Assembly (NCBI GenBank): GCA_951406725.2
Contig: OX597814.1
Location: 123,938,001 to 124,002,000, forward strand
From: Octopus vulgaris
Taxonomy: Eukaryota
Length of the DNA stretch: 64,000 bases
Direction of reading: 5' to 3'
Positions 26,531-62,953 of this stretch are shown piece after piece. The notes below the pieces were generated by a model, which searched no databases, was not told where the DNA came from, and saw only the letters and a program-made list of their open reading frames with translations. Position 1 is the stretch's first letter, and each line of letters starts with the position of its first letter. A program made the translations under genes and the position numbers.

Positions 26531-27961
26531 TAGTAAACACCAAAGTTTTGGTCTGCAGGAAAGAAAAATGGTAGGATTCTATTAATATTTTGGAGATGAG
26601 CACGATTGATATGCTGAAAAGGAATTGAAAAGGGTAGATTTTTATGATGTGCATGTTTAAAATATACAAAGTGCATTATTGAATAGTAGAAAAAAAGGTA
26701 TGGGTAATGAATGTGGAGGATGGAAGAGCATGTTCTGCTGGATGAGTAATAATAACAATATATGGAAGACAGAACACAAATGAACTGAGAGAAAAATTGA
26801 ATATATAAATAATAATCAAATGTAATGTGTAAGAAAGACCGTCACAACAGAGATGTGATGCATAAGGAGAATGGTAGTTGGATACAGAAGTCATAAGAGA
26901 TCTGGAAGGAATCTGTGGAGGAGGAAAACCAATCAAGACATGAGAAGAAGTGACGAGATGCTGTGCTGGAGAAGAAGAGAAGCCCCATCTGACCAACATA
27001 GTTATGTGAACAAATCCCACTGGTTCTATTCATTGGCATGACTTGTCGAAAATACAACTTCAAGATGGAGGCCTTTATATACATCTGTGTGCCAAATAAG
27101 AACAGTAGGGCTGTTGTGAAACACTTTTGTGCTCCTTCTCTGTATGTATGCATATGTGTATGTACACACACACACACATGCATGTATGAATGCACACACA
27201 CATCATTTGATGTCTGTTTTCCATGCTGGTATTGGTTGGATGGTTTTACAGGAGGTGGTTAGGCAGAAGACTGCACCAGGCTTCACTGTCTGTTTTGGCA
27301 TCTCTGGATGGAGCAGTTGTACCACAAGCTCTAGGGCAGTGCTACTCAAAGTGGTGGTCCGCAGACCGGTGCCAGTCCATGAGCTATCAGCTGCTGGTGC
27401 AAGGCGAGTTTCCAGAAAAGAAAGAAACATTATAAAATGCTTGTAAGATGCTTATGTAATATTGTATTATTTGTTTACAAAATAAATACTTAAAAAATTG
27501 TTAACTTTTATTATATCTATAATATATATTGTTTCCGGTATAAATTAATATTACTAAGAAATATTACCGGTCTGTTTTCTTTTTCGTTTTCTGGTTTTCC
27601 AATCTTCCTTTTATATCTGCTTTTATATACTACTTTTATATCTACTTCTTTCTCATCTTTTCTCACTTTTCACTCATCCTAGCCTTCTATTTTTAGCTTG
27701 TTATGCCATGTGGGCAGAGCCTGAAGATTGTGCTGAGACATCAGACATGTTAAAAAATACTGTCTGGCATGTTTTCGTTGCATAAAACTAACAGTAGCAC
27801 ATAAAAGCATCTTTTGTGTTTATTAAATAATAATTGTAATATATATCTCTCATTTGATGGAGCTTTTTGATCTTATCATCAAAGAACAGAATACTATGTG
27901 TATATATATTTGTGTGTGCGTGTGTGTTTATGTATGTATGCATGTGTGTATGGCAATGAAC

Positions 27962-28824
27962 CAGCTATCTTGGTTGAAGGAACAATTCTGAAGGTAGTAG
28001 ACAAGTTTGTCTACTTGGGCAGCACACTCAGCCATTCTTGCTCCCTGAATGAGGAAATATCTTTCAGGTTGCAGAGAGCAACAAATTCCTTCTGGTCTCT
28101 TCAGTCTCGTGTCTGGTCCCAACATGGCATTGCAAGCAGAACAAAAGTTGCTGTGTACCGTGCTTGTGTACTGACATTACTTCTCTACTCATGTGAGACA
28201 TGGACTCTGTACAAACGTCAGGTAAGGGTCCCTGAACGTTTTCATCAGAGATGTCTCAGACACATTCTCAATGTTGGCTGGACCTTCAAAAATTCCAGAC
28301 ACACAGAACCTGAGGACAGCTGATATCTTGAGTATTGAGGCGATGGTACACAAGCACCGGTTGCGTTGGACTGGACACCTTATTAGAATGGAGGATAGAA
28401 GGATTCCTAAGCAGATGCTCTATGGAGAACTTGCGAATGGAAGGAGACTCTGGCAGAAACCAAGGCTGCGATTTAAGGACTGTGTTAAGTCCTCGTTAAA
28501 GGCCTTTGATATGCAGGACACTGACTGGGAGAACAATGTCTGTCATCGCCACAGATGGAGGAAGCAGGCTAAGGAGGGGATCGACACTTTTGAGAAAGCA
28601 CGTATCCAGCATGAAAAACTTAGGCGAGCTGCGCGAAAGCGCACGGCTCGTATAGTGAATGGGGAAAGCTTGGTCTGCAATGTTTGCAGTCATGTATGCT
28701 TGTCAAGAGCAGTGCTCATTAGCCACCAACGGAGCCGCAAATGCAAAATATAAGTTAGTCCTAGAGCGCGCAATGTTCCTGAAGGTCGGCAATGGTCTTC
28801 CTCGGTCACGAGTGGACGGCCATC
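27962..28824 (+). mobile_element. 5'-truncated RTE-clade LINE with 12-bp TSD and C-terminal C2H2 finger
   Basis: VDKFVYLGSTLS..EEISFRLQRA...TKVAVYRACVLTLLLYSCETWTLY..ERFHQRCLRHIL / RLRWTGHLIRMEDRRIPKQMLYGEL..GRR..KPRLRFKD / CNVCSHVCLSRAVLISHQRS; one frameshift near 28285; ATGGCAATGAAC at 27950-27961 and 28825-28836. Confidence 0.92.
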
Positions 28825-55091: not shown

Positions 55092-56214
55092 TTATGTGTG
55101 TGAGCATCTAATTATGTTTGCATGCCTGTGTAATCTCTATCTCTGTCTTTCTTTCCTTCTCTCTCACACTTTCTATCTGTGTATGTATATTTCTGCATGA
55201 ATGTGTGTGTGTGCATGTGTGTGTTAGCCTCTAATGCTAAAATGTACAGTTGCCAAAGCAGGTTGAATGTCCATTGAGCCATGCCAAATTATCAATGTCT
55301 AAACAGCCATTCTCAATCAACTCACTCTCTGAGGATAATGTTAAAGGTACATATGTCTATGGAATACTCAGTCATTTGCATGTTAATAACAATGAATAAG
55401 TAGTTCAGTTGATCAGAAAACTGAAGCACTCATCAAAATGAAGGATCCAATCACTGCATTTACTTGTGTATAAGTGGTACTCATGTATAAGCTGCACCCC
55501 TAATTTAGTGTAAGAGCTTGGTACAAAGCTTTTTCCCTTCATAATTTTAGCTTGGCCAGGTGTGTAAACTGCATTCCAGCCTTTTCAGTTAAAAATTAAG
55601 TATAAAATAGTGCAACTTATACATGAATCATCATCATCATCATCCTCATCATCATCGTTTAACGTCCGCTTTCCATGCTAGCATGGGTTGGACGATTTGA
55701 CTGAGGTCTGGCAAACCAGATGGCTGCACCAGACTCCAATCTGATCTGGCAGATTTTCTACAGCTGGATGCCCTTCCTAACACCAACCACTCCAAGAGTG
55801 TAGTGGGTGCTTTTACGTGCCACCGGCATGAGGGCCAGTCAGGCGGTACTGGCAACGGCCATACTCAAATGGTGCTTTATATGTGCCACCTGCACAGGAG
55901 CCAGTCCAGCGGCACTGGCAACGACCTCGCTCGAATGTATTTTCATGTGCCACCAGCACAAGTGCTAGTAAGGTGATGCAGGTAATGATCACGCTCGAAT
56001 GGTGTTTTTAACGTGCCATCGGCACAGAGGCCAGCTTGTTGCTCTGGCAACGATCTCACTCATATGGTACTCATAGCGCTCCACTAGCACGGATGCCAGT
56101 CATCGAATTTGATTTCGATTTCGATTCCGATTGACATGAATAAATATACTAATTTTGTTATCTTCTGTGTTTTTTATGGACGAAACTTAAAATATGATGG
56201 TTAATTTGTTGCAG

Positions 56215-56334: not shown

Positions 56335-57981
56335 GTAATTCTATCATCTTTCATATTTTGGTTAGGCAATTTCAGGTATGGCAGGAGCTGGTGTGGCTAT
56401 GTGGTAAAAAATTTGCTTGCTAACTACATGTTTCTGAGTTCAGTCCCACTGTGTGGTACCTTGGACAGGTGTCTTCTACTATATTCTTTGGTTGACCAAA
56501 ACCTTATCAATGGATTTGGTGAACAGAAACTGAAAGAAGTCCATTGTGTGTGTGTCACTGTCTCCTTGACTTGACATCACATGATAGTTGTAAACGAGTG
56601 TCACCGTCATACAAGTGGTGTCCTTTGTTTCCAATCATTGGTGAAACCCTATCTGGACATGGAGACATATAATCTTGTTTGAAAACAGGTAAAGTTTGGT
56701 AACAGGAAGGGCATCCAGCTGTAGAAAATTCACTTCATTAAAATTCTATCAGACTCATCTAAGCATGGAAAAGTGAATGTTAAAAGGGTGGTGATAATGA
56801 TAATAATGAGGATGAATGCTAGCTAAGGATGGCAATATATGAAAAGAAAAACAATTAATTTAATGTGTGATCATTTAAACATATGTACCTTATTAAAATT
56901 CAAAATAACACGTCTGTGTGTGTGCATGATTTGTTACACCTAGTATTTTGTTAATGTGAAATATTTAATAAGCATGTCATGAAGCATATGAATGAATTAA
57001 TTAATTCTATATAAATATGTATATCTAATTTTATTCTGAAATTGATTTTGGAGTCCCAAGACATAGAGAGAATGTATGAGTCACACAGCTTTTAACCCGT
57101 TTGGGTGTCATTCAGCATTAGTACAGTCAGAACTGGACATGGTCTCCCCAGTAAGACTGTTTACATTTATAATTATATAAACCATTCAGTAAAGCACACA
57201 AATTCTGTATACAAACATATATATAGTAATGTTTTACACACTAGTACATGAAACACACATCATTCCACAAAATGTATATACTCGGTTATTTATAAACATA
57301 CATATACACAGGCGCACATAATTTTAAACTTGCCCACACATACGTACTTACGCACTCACCCTCATTCACACACACACACACACACCATTCTCACACACAC
57401 ACACATGTACTTGTAACACCCTTGTTCGGCTGGGTCACCATTATTATCTGCCTTTCACTCAGCCTCATTCTTCTAACCATTTCATCATGTTAAACTGTTA
57501 ATCCCAACACATTTTTTTTCTCTCTTTGTTTTTTTTTGTTCTCCTCCTGTTTTTTTCCTCAATCCTTTCTGTTGAAGAGCATAGGCTCAAAACGTCAAAG
57601 ACTTTTCTATTCTTCCCGAGCATCAAATTAATACAGTTGCTTGTTGTTCCTTCACCTGTCTTCGTCTTTTGTTTCTGAAAATTTGAACTATATATATATA
57701 TATATATATATATAAATATAAATGTAAATCCAGGGATTGAGGTGTAGGAAGAAAGTTATCTTTGGTAAATATAAAAAAGTAACTTTAGGGAACAACAGTG
57801 GCTTATTGAGATGGACAGTTTAATCTGATCAAGATATCCTTGACATGAAGAGTAGCCGGCAGTATACACCTCGCTTGGATTTTATTACTTCTGAGGTTTC
57901 ATTCGCTAAGAAATATATGTAGCCTGGATTTTTCCTACTCCATTCGATAATTCTTGTATGTATATATATATATATATATAT

Positions 57982-59052
57982 ATAATTAATCAATATAGGG
58001 TGGCAAAAAATTTTGTAGAATTTTTTTGCCACCAGCGGCCTAGCGGGAAAAAATTAAATAGTCATAGACCATTTATAAATTCAACATCACGATCAAGGAA
58101 CAGCCATAATAGGCCATTCACCCACTAGAAATAACAGCCAAAGCTTTCAACCGCAAAATAACATCAATTCCGTAAACAGGAGAAAATTAAAAAAACGTTT
58201 ACCCTGCAATTTCTTATACGATGCACCGTTTCGTCTACTGTTTAATGGTAAAACTAACCTGATTAAATTAAATCAAGCCAATCTTCCATAGGCCCTTAGA
58301 TTCATCAGTAAGAAATAGCCATATCGGAACAGATATTTTCACGAGGCATTTCTGTTGCTGCCTCGACAATATCTGACCTAAAATTTTCAAATCATCAGAC
58401 TCGCGCCAAAATTATCGGCAGCAAATAAATATAAGCCGCCGATTCCATTACGGAATTAACCAGAAAATTCATAATTAATCAATATAGGGTGGCAAAAAAT
58501 TTTGTAGAATTTTTTTGCCACCAGCGGCCTAGCGGGAAAAAATTAAATAGTCATAGACCATTTATAAATTCAACATCACGATCAAGGAACAGCCATAATA
58601 GGCCATTCACCCACTAGAAATAACAGCCAAAGCTTTCAACCGCAAAATAACATCAATTCCGTAAACAGGAGAAAATTAAAAAAACGTTTACCCTGCAATT
58701 TCTTATACGATGCACCGTTTCGTCTACTGTTTAATGGTAAAACTAACCTGATTAAATTAAATCAAGCCAATCTTCCATAGGCCCTTAGATTCATCAGTAA
58801 GAAATAGCCATAAAACATGGCTATTTCTTACTGATGAATCTAAGGGCCTATGGAAGATTGGCTTGATTTAATTTAATCAGGTTAGTTTTACCATTAAACA
58901 GTAGACGAAACGGTGCATCGTATAAGAAATTGCAGAGTAAACGTTTTTTTAATTTTCTCCTGTTTACGGAATTGATGTTATTTTGCGGTTGAAAGCTTTG
59001 GCTGTTATTTCTAGTGGGTGAATGGCCTATTATGGCTGTTCCTTGATCGTGA

Positions 59053-59054
<2 letters not shown>
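57982..59054. mobile_element. Young Penelope-like terminal-repeat array: 489-bp unit, partial tandem copy and inverted copy
   Basis: Unit 57982-58470, direct copy 58471-58811, inverted copy 58817-59054 (one mismatch seen); inserted in (TA)n; each part carries a hammerhead. Confidence 0.88.
58823..58930 (+). ncRNA. Type I hammerhead ribozyme (identical minus-strand copies at 58209-58316 and 58698-58805)
   Basis: Stem I ATTTCTTA/TAAGAAAT (8 bp), CTGATGA 58831-58837, stem II TCTA/TAGA with a long loop, GAAA 58907-58910, stem III ACG-GTGCAT-CGT, GUA cleavage triplet (after 58922). Confidence 0.8.
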
Positions 59055-59088
<34 letters not shown>

Positions 59089-60096
59089 CATCCGATCGTG
59101 GCCGTTTGCCAGCCTCATCTGGCACCTGTGTCGGTGGCACATAAAAACACCATCCGAGCGTGGCCGTCTGCCAGCCTCGTCTGGCACCTGTGTCGGTGGC
59201 ACATAAAAAACACCATCCGAGCGTGGCCGTTTGCCAACCTCGTCTGGCACCTGTGTCGGTGGCACATAAAATCACCCACTACACTCTCGGAGTGGTTGGC
59301 GTTAGGAAGGGCATCCAGCTGTAGAAACAGTGCCAGATCTGACTGGACTGGTGCAGCTTTCGGGCTCCCCAGACCCCAGTTGAACCGTCCAACCCATGCT
59401 AGCATGGAAAGCGGACGTTAAATGATGATGATGATGATATATATATATATATATATATATCTATCACCGTGATCACCGTGACTGACCAGGTTATCAGATG
59501 TTGCTACACATTGCTGGTCACAATGCGCTTCGCATTGTTTTAGCCTTCAAATGATGCCAATCCAGCTGGCTAAGCGAGCAGGCCAACAGAAGAAAGAGTG
59601 AGAGAAAGTTGTGGCGAAAGAGTACAGCAAGGATTGCCACCACCCTCTGCCGGAGCCTCGTGGAACTTTAGGTGTTTTCGCTCAGTAAACACTCACAACA
59701 CCCAGTCTGGGAATCGAAACCACAATCCTACGACTGTGAGTCCACTGCCCTAACCACTGGGCCATTGCACCTCCACACACACACACACACACATATATAA
59801 TTAATTAATCGTTTGAAGGATTTGTTAAAATCAAGGTATTTTAATATTAAGGACACCAAGTGAGAATCGAGATCTGCACATCCATGTATATGCCATATAC
59901 AAACGCATATGTATATACTCATGCATACATGGATACACCCATACACTTACACATACATGCACACACAAATATACACATACGTAGAGATATAGATGCACAT
60001 GAAATTATATACTGGTGGAGTTTCATGATTGAATGTAAGTTCCAGATCCAGCTTAGAGAAGGTTCCAGGTACAGTGTTTACATAAAAAAAGAACAC

Positions 60097-60309
60097 AAAT
60101 GGGTTGAAGATTCACTACAGCTGTTTCAAGCACATTTTTTTATTGATGAATAATGTGATTACATCCTGAAAAAAACTGTTTTCTTCAGGTGAATTAAAAT
60201 CTTAGATCTTTAATTCACTTGAAGAAAATGATATTTTTCATGATGTAATCAAATTATTCCTCAATAAAAAATGTGTTTGAAACAGTTGTAGTGAACCTTT
60301 AACCCATTT
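60097..60309. repeat. Fold-back Penelope-like relic, about 105-bp arms
   Basis: AAATGGGTT.AAG.TTCACTACA.CTGTTTCAA... pairs with ...TTGAAACAG.TGTAGTGAA.CTT.AACCCATTT. Confidence 0.85.
60110..60194 (-). ncRNA. Type I hammerhead motif (degenerate + copy at 60213-60295)
   Basis: Minus strand ATTCAC-CTGAAGA-AAACA...TGCTT-GAAA-CAGCTG-TA-GTGAAT; palindromic stem III ACAGCTGT, GUA site. Confidence 0.7.
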
Positions 60310-60332
60310 ATGATCTTATTTTATACATACAT

Positions 60333-60405
<73 letters not shown>

Positions 60406-62953
60406 TTAAAGTAGTGATGAAGCAAACAATTAGACAAGACATGACAAGGATATTTTATTTGATTTAATTCAATCTAATTTAGCTACATAATGAAGGGTAA
60501 AAATTCATTATGTAGATTGAATTAAATTTAATGTCCCTGAAATGCCTTGCCTAATTGCTTGCTTTTCCTCACTACCTTAACCTTCACCTACCGACTCAAA
60601 GAGAAGCCATCTTTAGCTGTTTTGAACAACATAATCACATAATCACAACTTCAACCGTTGTTCAAACTGGAATTTTGGTGGCACATCTATTTGAGGCATG
60701 GCTGTGTGGTAAGAAGCTTGCTCCCCAGTTGCATGGTTCCAGGTTTAGTCCCACTATGTGACACCTTGGACTTCTACTATAAGCCTCAGGCTGACCGAAG
60801 CCTTGTGAGTGGATTTGGTAGATGGAAAATAAAAGAAGCCCGTTGTATGTATATCATCATGTATGAATGTATGTATGTGCCGGTAGCATGCAAAAAACCA
60901 CCTGGCTCCTATGCCGGTGGCATGTAAAAAGCACCCACTACACTCTTAGAGTGGTTGGTGTTAGGAAGGATATCCAGCTGTAGAAACACTGCCAGATCAG
61001 ACTGGAGTCTGGTGCAGCCTCATGGCTTCCTAGACCCCGGTCGAACCGTCCAACCCATGCTAGCATGGAAAACGGACGTTAAATGATGGTGATGATGATG
61101 ATGATATATGTTTTTGTGTGTGTGTGTCTGTGTCCATCATCACTAGATAACAGATGCTGTGTATTTGCGTCCCCCATACCTTAGCAGTTTGGCAAAAGAT
61201 ACTGATAGAATAAGTACTAGGCTTACAAAGAATAAGTCATGGGGTCGATGTGTTCAACTAAAGGTGGTGCTCCTGCATGGCCACAGTCAAATGACTGAAA
61301 CAAATAAATGAATAAAAGAATATATATATATCATTGTTATTTATATCTATACATGTAAGTTTGTTTGTATGTATGTATGTATGCATACACATGCAACACA
61401 CTCACACATATACACACACACACGCAAACAAAAACTCACAAATACACACACTCACACACACACATGCACTCACATGCACCCACACACACATGCACTCACA
61501 AACACACACATACACATGCACACACAGACAAACACACTAACACACAAGCACACACTCACATGCACATACACGCCCACACATGCACTCACATATACACACA
61601 CGCAAACACACACACGGAATCACACACATACAAACACACACATGCACACTCACACACACTCACACACACTCACATGCACACACAAACACGCACAAACACA
61701 CAAGCACACACACATGCACACACACAAACACACACACACACACTCACATGCACTCACAAAAACACACATATGTACGCACACACACACACACTCACACGCA
61801 CGCTCACACACATGCACCCACCCACACATGTGCGTGTGAGCAGTGGAAGTAAACTAATGATTGAATAAACCCTGTCAACCCAGGCAAATGTCATGAGGGA
61901 TGGGAAGAGGGACAAAGATGGTGGTGATGAGATTTTAGGGTCTACCTTCATGACGCAAGATGATCATAAGAGATAATATGAAGGGATGGTCATGTAGGGT
62001 GGGTGTTTAAGTTTTACAATCATGTGAAAAGTGAGTGACAGATGATTAAAGATGGAGGTAGAGATGAGTGTTGGGAATATTGAACAAGGGTGGAGGCATG
62101 GGTGATGGCACATGGCCTAGTGGTTGGAGTATTGCACTCCCGGTCACGAGATTGTGGTTTCAATTCCCAGACCAGCTGCACATTGTGTTATTGAGGAAGA
62201 CACTTCATTTCACTTTGCTCCTGTCCATTCAGCTGTAGATGGATAACCTTGCAATGGATCGGCCTTACAAGGATGAGCTGGTGACTCAGGAAACCCACTT
62301 GGGTTACAGAAACCTCCTGAGTCATATTAATCTATTCAGTAACTGTACTGTGAATTCAAAATGGTTGGGATTGGTTGTTCAACCACGTCGAAGGACGATT
62401 ATGATGATGATGATGATGATTATGATGATGGTTATGATGGTTGATGGTAAATATGAGTTTTGTGGTGGTGGGGAAGGTGTGAAAAATATAGAAGTGGTTC
62501 TGGAAGGAAGGCAGAGGTGATAAGTGACAATACTGATTGAAAACAAAAGTACAAAGACTTGTACATACAAACGCACAAACGCATACGTGAAAGCACAGAA
62601 ACATACAAACACACGTAGACACTTACAAGCACACACCAACAAGAAAGCACATACATACATACACACATACATACATACACACATAGATACATACATACAT
62701 ACATACATACATACATACATGAAAATATGCACAAGCACACACAAATGCTCACAAACGCTCGCAAACACTCACTAATACACGAACAGACACAAACACAGAA
62801 AATATTAAACAGAGGAGGACCAATTTCATATTGAAGTAATCTAAATTGCAGTTATTTGACATAATAACTTAGAACTGCCGCTAACTCTGTTGATGCTAAA
62901 TCCCAAAACTGTTATCAAAAGTTAATATCTGTTTGTTCTGTTGTTTTTGTTAG

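Follow-up and report, generated by a model that had tools for sequence, protein, structure and literature searches.

An abundant, non-coding 489-bp hammerhead repeat makes up the 1,073-bp insert at positions 57982–59054 of the window (the whole 64-kb stretch of DNA that was analysed), where it forms a partial tandem with an inverted copy, nearly identical throughout and bordered on each side by a (TA)n run. We believe that the insert is probably a young insertion of a non-LTR retrozyme, i.e., a non-autonomous Penelope-like element (PLE), which would have arisen by way of a circle.

The anatomy is that proposed in the earlier note. Repeat comparison places the 489-bp unit and a 341-bp direct partial copy of it at a period of 489, with 57982–58323 equal to 58471–58812 in 342 of 342 bases (the 341 plus one A common to both copies), and a 238-bp inverted copy beside them, whose arms 58574–58811 and 58817–59054 pair at 237 of 238 positions, the sole mismatch being 58692/58936, around a 5-nt spacer at 58812–58816. 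The copies are near-identical, as had been claimed: 100% for the direct copies and 99.6% for the inverted arm. Along the minus strand, which is the sense strand of the element, the order is the inverted 238-nt arm (58817–59054, a plus-strand copy), the spacer at the head-to-head junction, the upstream, 5′-truncated 341-nt copy (58471–58811), the 148-nt body (58323–58470, single here), the downstream 341-nt copy (57982–58322, identical to the upstream one) and the (TA)n run (57961–57984), which is the left half of the target microsatellite at the 3′ end of the element and whose last three bases overlap the unit; the right half is an (AT)n run at 59055–59085. The direct and inverted copies have a common 5′ breakpoint, 14 nt ahead of the hammerhead core, while at the 3′ end the inverted copy is 103 nt shorter than the direct copy, so that the outer ends of the array differ by 103 nt, compared with a Penelope tail described as 30–40 bp. 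The downstream copy is pseudo-LTR-like, with one hammerhead and 235 nt from it to the 3′ end. Near the 3′ end of the unit a 12-bp perfect hairpin is predicted (57999–58033, minus strand, with a second at 58488–58522), the A-run of which varies in length across the contigs of the family described below, and hairpins are likewise predicted in the 148-nt body.

The divergence amounts to one difference in 920 copied bases, or 0.11% per site (95% range 0.003–0.6%), and the insertion is therefore young or recently homogenised. The array also stands out in composition: the CpG-richness that had been claimed is clear from an observed/expected ratio of 1.18 for the unit versus 0.33 for the whole window, and when the window is cut into 130 bins of 489 nt, one array bin ranks first and another is tied second. 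The background is microsatellite-rich, CpG-poor, animal-type DNA, in which the repeats around the array may be of octopus type, and the GC content of the unit is 0.36. The earlier note saw no evident coding capacity, and stop-to-stop frames of at least 100 aa are indeed absent from 57982–59054, as are, among the signals sought in the array, Pol III A or B boxes and tRNAs. No other match to the unit was found in the 64-kb window at E<0.001. In the surroundings, a second dispersed repeat (62–65-bp tandem units plus a SINE-like part, 75–94% alike; 59085–59440, 55636–56071 and 60927–61144) adjoins the right microsatellite, and an imperfect nested inverted repeat at 60075–60331, with arms 85–87% complementary, is perhaps an old MITE. 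Farther away, 27871–28753 (+) is a frameshifted fragment that we take to resemble the C-terminal region of the reverse transcriptase in LINEs of the RTE type, for which a Pfam search gave no match.

Two hammerheads lie in tandem on the minus strand and one on the plus strand, as the earlier note had it, with CUGAUGA cores starting at 58797 (−), 58308 (−) and 58831 (+). All three copies are composed of the same parts: an 8-bp stem I, CUGAUGA, 69 nt, GAAA, the 12-nt palindrome that had been reported as stem III, and a GUA site. In motif search and fold, hammerhead 1 spans 58698–58805 (−), with a predicted cut between 58706 and 58705, and hammerhead 2, a type I motif of the same sequence, spans 58209–58316 (−), with stem I formed by 58316–58309 and 58216–58209, the core at 58308–58302, stem II at 58301–58233, GAAA at 58232–58229, the palindrome at 58229–58218 and the predicted cut between 58217 and 58216. 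Hammerhead 3 (58823–58930) is alone on the plus strand and has no partner in cis. The type I core (C3–A9, G12–A14, A15.1–U16.1 and H17) is present in three of three copies. The word intact in the earlier note nevertheless goes too far, since stem II begins with a mismatch: 10.1 and 11.1 are A and C. The unusual insert of about 60 nt noted in stem II is 59 nt when counted inside the 4-bp base, while the stretch from CUGAUGA to GAAA is 69 nt.

With a descriptor that tolerates a single mispair where stem II begins, the window yields these three motifs and no others; a strict one, with 10.1–11.1 paired, recovers none of the three copies. The motif did not arise by chance in any of 20,000 dinucleotide-shuffled units, nor in 100 shuffled windows. 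Rfam returned no hammerhead match, either at the gathering threshold or up to E=10, which the long stem II likely explains; its top matches were miRNA models, all below their gathering scores, and are due to the perfect inverted repeat. A scan for the core-plus-palindrome pattern hit 16 metagenome loci and one viral locus, all dropped as chance because only the pattern of 14–17 nt is common to them and the unit and no such hammerhead fold is present. Another CUGAUGA at 58398 (−) was set aside because it is peculiar to this copy: at three of the letters most of the family depth of one public run (X1, below) differs.

Stem II itself (58233–58301) is predicted to consist of the A·C base, a 4-bp stem, an internal loop and a long hairpin, with 24 predicted pairs, five of them G·U. 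Its fold has a z-score of −5.25 on the minus strand versus −0.6 on the opposite strand, and this strand-specific, G·U-rich predicted folding argues for selection on an RNA. A candidate 4-bp contact between loop I and loop II, 58320–58317 with 58294–58291 (−), is one of 12 helices of at least 4 bp, and a pseudoknot here is no better than chance. The 5′ breakpoint of the array lies two bases upstream of this candidate contact between the stem I leader and the internal loop of stem II.

The repeat is not a one-off. A search of public sequencing runs with 57985–58470 as the query listed 24 runs from 15 studies and 8 organism codes, none recorded as RNA. Four of them were aligned to one permuted unit (58045–58533): X1 and X12 (both organism code A, X1 perhaps the source sample and X12 guessed to be an RNA run), and X2 (B) and X3 (C), which come from other organism codes and other studies than X1. 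The whole unit is covered in each run, with 29 of 29 bins filled. The matching contigs number 3,565 in X1 (40.6 million records), 11,605 in X2 (36.2 million), 468 in X3 (14.2 million) and 117 in X12 (1.7 million). The ratio of depth between the 341-nt and 148-nt parts is 1.15–1.33, there is no drop to zero at the tandem junction, and the share of contigs that continue into unlike sequence is 0 in all four. This even coverage with zero unlike run-on agrees better with a short, closed unit arranged in tandem than with the tail of a long element. None of the contigs listed extends 31 letters beyond the tandem junction in both directions (the best reaches 44 and 29); contig depth is a rough measure, as contigs break at branches, and gives neither copy number nor array length. 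At 58146 a loose end occurs in 84 contigs of X2, where the unit downstream is swapped for sequence like its own 3′ end, possibly a shorter subfamily.

Variation within the family leans towards positions outside the predicted helices: of 37 variable positions, 21 have no partner in the modelled fold (p=0.035), and nine of these belong to a single hairpin loop. Among the 40 of 68 variant rows listed, 17 fall at paired positions, where nine keep the pair and eight break it; in none of the 17 can a compensatory change be demonstrated. One variant in stem I retains pairing as G·U, and the 40 listed rows (of 68) leave both core and palindrome untouched, an observation that has no significance by itself. 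The hairpin loop at 58349–58358 in the 148-nt body is hypervariable (10 of the 40 listed rows), and its closing stem is largely conserved.

The mismatch at 10.1–11.1 must be seen against this family. All three copies of the array carry A and C; in depth, 11.1 is U in 91, 51, 96 and 100%, and 10.1 is G in 24, 0, 14 and 32%, of X1, X2, X3 and X12, respectively. Therefore A-U is the main form, being the commonest state in three of the four runs (X1, X3 and X12), and G·U must exist, while A·C, at about half of the X2 depth, is a spread allele and not private damage. In the 40 of 68 variant rows listed, 10.1 varies only as a purine and 11.1 only as a pyrimidine. According to the available portion of Perreault et al. 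2011 (PMC3088659), candidates mispaired at 10.1–11.1 were rejected, a rule that would discard all three of our copies, and a natural U·U form was also reported. By our own count from File S2 of Craig et al. 2021 (PMC8557442), 15 of 25 Hydra-clade PLE families are mismatched here, with U·U or U·C and in no case A·C. A literature search brought up nothing on what A·C does at this position. Judged from the sequence, A·C may lower the predicted activity, and the hammerhead of this copy is probably weakened, though not proven dead.

Whether the hammerheads could act together was approached by secondary-structure prediction, which takes no account of tertiary contacts. The palindrome is predicted at −0.2 kcal/mol as a monomer versus −17.5 as a duplex, and in an 830-nt minus transcript the two palindromes pair with a probability of 0.92–1.0 while the monomer stems are at 0.0, in line with the dimer-type folding suggested in the earlier note. 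The swapped stems I are weaker in the same model, at 0.28–0.42 for the inner and 0.08–0.18 for the outer one, the latter rising to 0.78–1.0 in a 614-nt prefix. The two GUA sites are 489 nt apart, as expected of a 489-nt monomer, and the predicted monomer, or circle, between the cut sites (58217–58705, −) has a fold z-score of −5.29 on the minus strand versus −3.64 on the plus strand. When the 489-nt monomer is modelled as a circle, palindrome and core pair with each other at 0.34–0.47 and the active stem III is at most 0.01; this off-helix is at 0.0 in the dimer. One claim of the earlier note did not survive in general form: cleavage of an antisense transcript at both sites is predicted only for transcripts that start at or inside about 58811. 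Once the inverted arm is included, the predicted probability of the dimer stem III drops to 0.0, and so only an internally started transcript would be expected to cut twice. Read-through from the right flank would make the inverted arm first and is predicted to hide the upstream hammerhead in a 238-bp duplex.

From the observed anatomy and these predicted folds we infer the following route. A transcript begun inside an array would carry two hammerheads, the palindromes of which would pair to form a double hammerhead; this would cut both GUA sites and free a 489-nt monomer, which would be ligated to a circle, where the lone palindrome would pair with the catalytic core and hold it off. A borrowed PLE reverse transcriptase and endonuclease would then nick a (TA)n run, reverse transcription would start within the unit at a point 235 nt beyond the cut site, and copying would run for 1.7 rounds (830 nt) and halt at the 5′ edge of the ribozyme, after which fold-back or a second priming would add the inverted 238-nt arm. 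In the insert neither of the two cut sites is broken, and the 5′ end (58811) lies 106 nt upstream of the first cut, so the template was either a long RNA that had not been cut or a circle that was copied for 1.7 rounds. Both direct copies carry six letters that are missing from at least 88% of the X1 and X2 depth, yet they are mutually identical, which points to a tandem regenerated from a single monomer. A circle is the simplest such source, though re-priming or gene conversion would equally give identical direct copies.

The array shares a number of features with metazoan retrozymes. As described in the available portions of Cervera and de la Pena 2020 (PMC7229834), who showed retrozyme circles in coral, mussel and axolotl, and of Li, Clavereau and Pollet 2026 (bioRxiv 10.64898/2026.07.22.740005), who tie retrozymes to PLE ends, these are non-coding head-to-tail units with one type I hammerhead per unit, a low GC content, no LTR, PBS or PPT, at least two consecutive hammerheads, many copies and a strongly self-paired monomer. 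Our array is likewise head-to-tail (1.7 units), with two type I hammerheads 489 nt apart, non-coding and low in GC (0.36), and in the contigs of the four runs it belongs to a multi-copy family of the unit alone. Amphibian retrozymes need dimers, like the dimer predicted here, and of nine predicted Xenopus retrozyme dimers one cleaved (bioRxiv 10.64898/2026.07.22.740005). The unit of 489 nt exceeds the 170–400 nt of PMC7229834 and is within the 51–972 bp of the bioRxiv study. What sets our array apart from the metazoan retrozymes, as far as these texts describe them, is the 69-nt stem II, the 12-nt palindromic stem III, the A·C base and the inverted-arm footprint of a PLE.

According to the available text of PMC8557442, the usual PLE insertion is a pseudo-LTR (pLTR) partial tandem, often adjoining an inverted 5′-truncated copy, with a bias for microsatellites, and the array has just such a layout: a partial tandem, an inverted 5′-truncated copy beside the upstream pLTR and a microsatellite target. 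The pLTR hammerheads of PLEs, as presented in the accessible parts of Cervera and de la Pena 2014 (PMC4209133), where a circle model was proposed for them, and of PMC6765202, are also type I with a weak palindromic stem III and a predicted dimer, and occur as partial tandems and opposite-strand pairs. The motifs described there have a helix II of up to 7–8 bp, G10.1–C11.1 and an extra base after A9; unlike the hammerheads of PMC4209133, ours comes with no ORF and a stem II of 24 predicted pairs. The 69-nt arm extends the known range, longer loops II being known in two plant PLE hammerheads in the available part of PMC8557442. By the same source, Hydra-clade PLEs share with our array the (TA)n target (26 of 27 families), a self-complementary stem III (theirs 3–4 bp), the tolerance of a mismatch at the base of stem II and, in one family, an inverted 5′-truncated copy, and have a member in Octopus; unlike our array, they code for RT and EN and have a loop II of 3–10 nt.

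Hydra-clade PLEs are therefore our best guess, by analogy in the (TA)n target, palindromic stem III and mismatch tolerance, for the clade of the helper. Octopus has recently active Penelope families, 30 families being given in the available part of PMC13282606. Compared by eye at their 3′ ends, four octopus consensi of the accessible supplement of PMC8557442, three Naiads and Hydra-1_Obim, show no likeness to the unit, and eight of nine short motifs of the unit are absent from that supplement. A link to octopus Naiads was rejected as having no sequence support, a 13/14 match being expected by chance (hand estimate). In the same supplement Naiad_Obim and Naiad_Ovul both terminate in a structured stretch that is conserved and richer in GC, where GAAAC precedes CUGAUGA and for which no hammerhead parse was found.

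The strongest competitor of the circle, which we consider unlikely on balance, is that uncut linear RNA was the template: the element would be mobilised by a PLE, the tandem would come from re-priming or a template jump, and the hammerhead would be a passenger or a protein-binding fold. The two retained cut sites and the 5′ end 106 nt upstream agree with it, in that a cut linear monomer was not the sole template, as does the A·C form at about half of the X2 depth; Naiads, moreover, are reported to thrive without canonical hammerheads. The one PLE assayed in vitro is Poseidon of Anolis (Frangieh et al. 2024; PMC11167929), in which priming is internal at AT-rich targets, hammerhead mutants still insert, cleavage being dispensable for insertion in vitro, and unprocessed RNA is the main template. 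As in our array, its reverse transcription starts downstream of the hammerhead at an AT-rich target and gives two different 3′ ends; unlike in our array, its tail is short and its hammerhead overlaps an ORF. Against uncut RNA speak the core, palindrome and stem I, which have no pair-breaking change in the 40 listed rows (alone not significant), and the identity of the direct copies despite their lineage-specific letters, most simply obtained from a circle. The A·C allele, the weak stem I pairing, the eight pair-breaking rows among the 17 at paired positions, the failure of any listed contig to extend 31 letters across the junction both ways, the single cleaving dimer of nine in Xenopus, the negative comparison with possible helpers and the uncut template in one assayed PLE, in turn, count against the circle.

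That the array is instead the 5′-truncated terminal part, i.e., the pLTRs, of an autonomous PLE whose ORF was left uncopied is rather improbable. Truncation at the 5′ end and pLTR-only insertions are common in PLEs (available text of PMC8557442 and of the bioRxiv study), and since Logan contigs are short and branch-broken, a rare long parent could escape. The 148-nt part, however, joins directly to a 3′ end, the excess depth of the 341-nt part in the contigs is small (see above), and no major loose end at 58470 is found among the 24 of 214 rows listed; C-terminal residues of a PLE are not evident by eye in the six frames, an ORF with RT and GIY-YIG is absent from the array, and five other ORFs in the window have no Pfam match. 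Still less credible is that the family is real and the exact direct-plus-inverted arrangement an assembly artefact. Copies 100% and 99.6% identical form structures known to trouble assemblies (PMC8557442, available text), and the contig alignment covered the unit only, with the flanks and spacer outside the aligned stretch; the layout, the common 5′ breakpoint, the non-repeat spacer, the one arm substitution and the flanking (TA)n are, however, typical of PLE insertions. Helitrons have a hairpin near the 3′ end and a CTRR terminus, and a satellite or DNA rolling-circle (Helitron-like) element with a hammerhead look-alike, which the 12-bp hairpin near the 3′ end might bring to mind, is barely conceivable, as the CTRR end is absent, the motif arose in 0 of 20,000 shuffles and the fold is G·U-rich and strand-specific.

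A separate lead concerns permuted hammerheads outside the window. Naiads are reported to be without canonical hammerheads, and type CSG, in which the cleavage block lies between CUGAnGA and GAAA, is known from two metagenomic sequences according to the available part of Eckert et al. 2023 (PMC10085705). In a motif search of the accessible supplement of PMC8557442 the end of Naiad-3_Nbra matched, and by eye 5 of 12 Naiad 3′ ends (File S5) carry a putative complete, non-circularly permuted hammerhead of this type: three Nippostrongylus families and, by file order, one from Heligmosomoides and one from Stegodyphus. Their stems, as seen by eye, differ yet pair, and a helix links stems I and II. 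In a literature search on Naiads and permuted hammerheads, none of the papers listed dealt with this by title or start of abstract. The hammerhead of the window does not lend itself to this reading, the best internal version having only 4 pairs overall. The lead is possibly more interesting than the array itself.

Retrozymes of this kind are already known, and the insertion as such is no surprise; its value is that of a test case. The copy is short and very young, packs a complete PLE footprint into 1.07 kb and comes from a family in which natural alleles occur beside the catalytic core, at a time when the role of the hammerhead in PLEs and retrozymes is open according to the available text of PMC8557442, and cleavage was found dispensable in vitro (PMC11167929). 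Among the papers listed on octopus or cephalopod ribozymes or on octopus Penelope elements, we found no description of the family, and it may be in Repbase, Dfam or subscription journals; only tentatively would we suggest an unrecognised, very abundant retrozyme family, hidden from Rfam by its 69-nt stem II, with a palindrome switch and amplified A-U, G·U and A·C forms. In any case, a long stem II can hide even an abundant hammerhead family from Rfam. If the A·C form is inactive and yet jumping, it would be a natural case of a retrozyme spreading without cutting, and should permuted and long-armed hammerheads prove frequent at the ends of PLEs, “hammerhead-less” PLE groups would have been misread.
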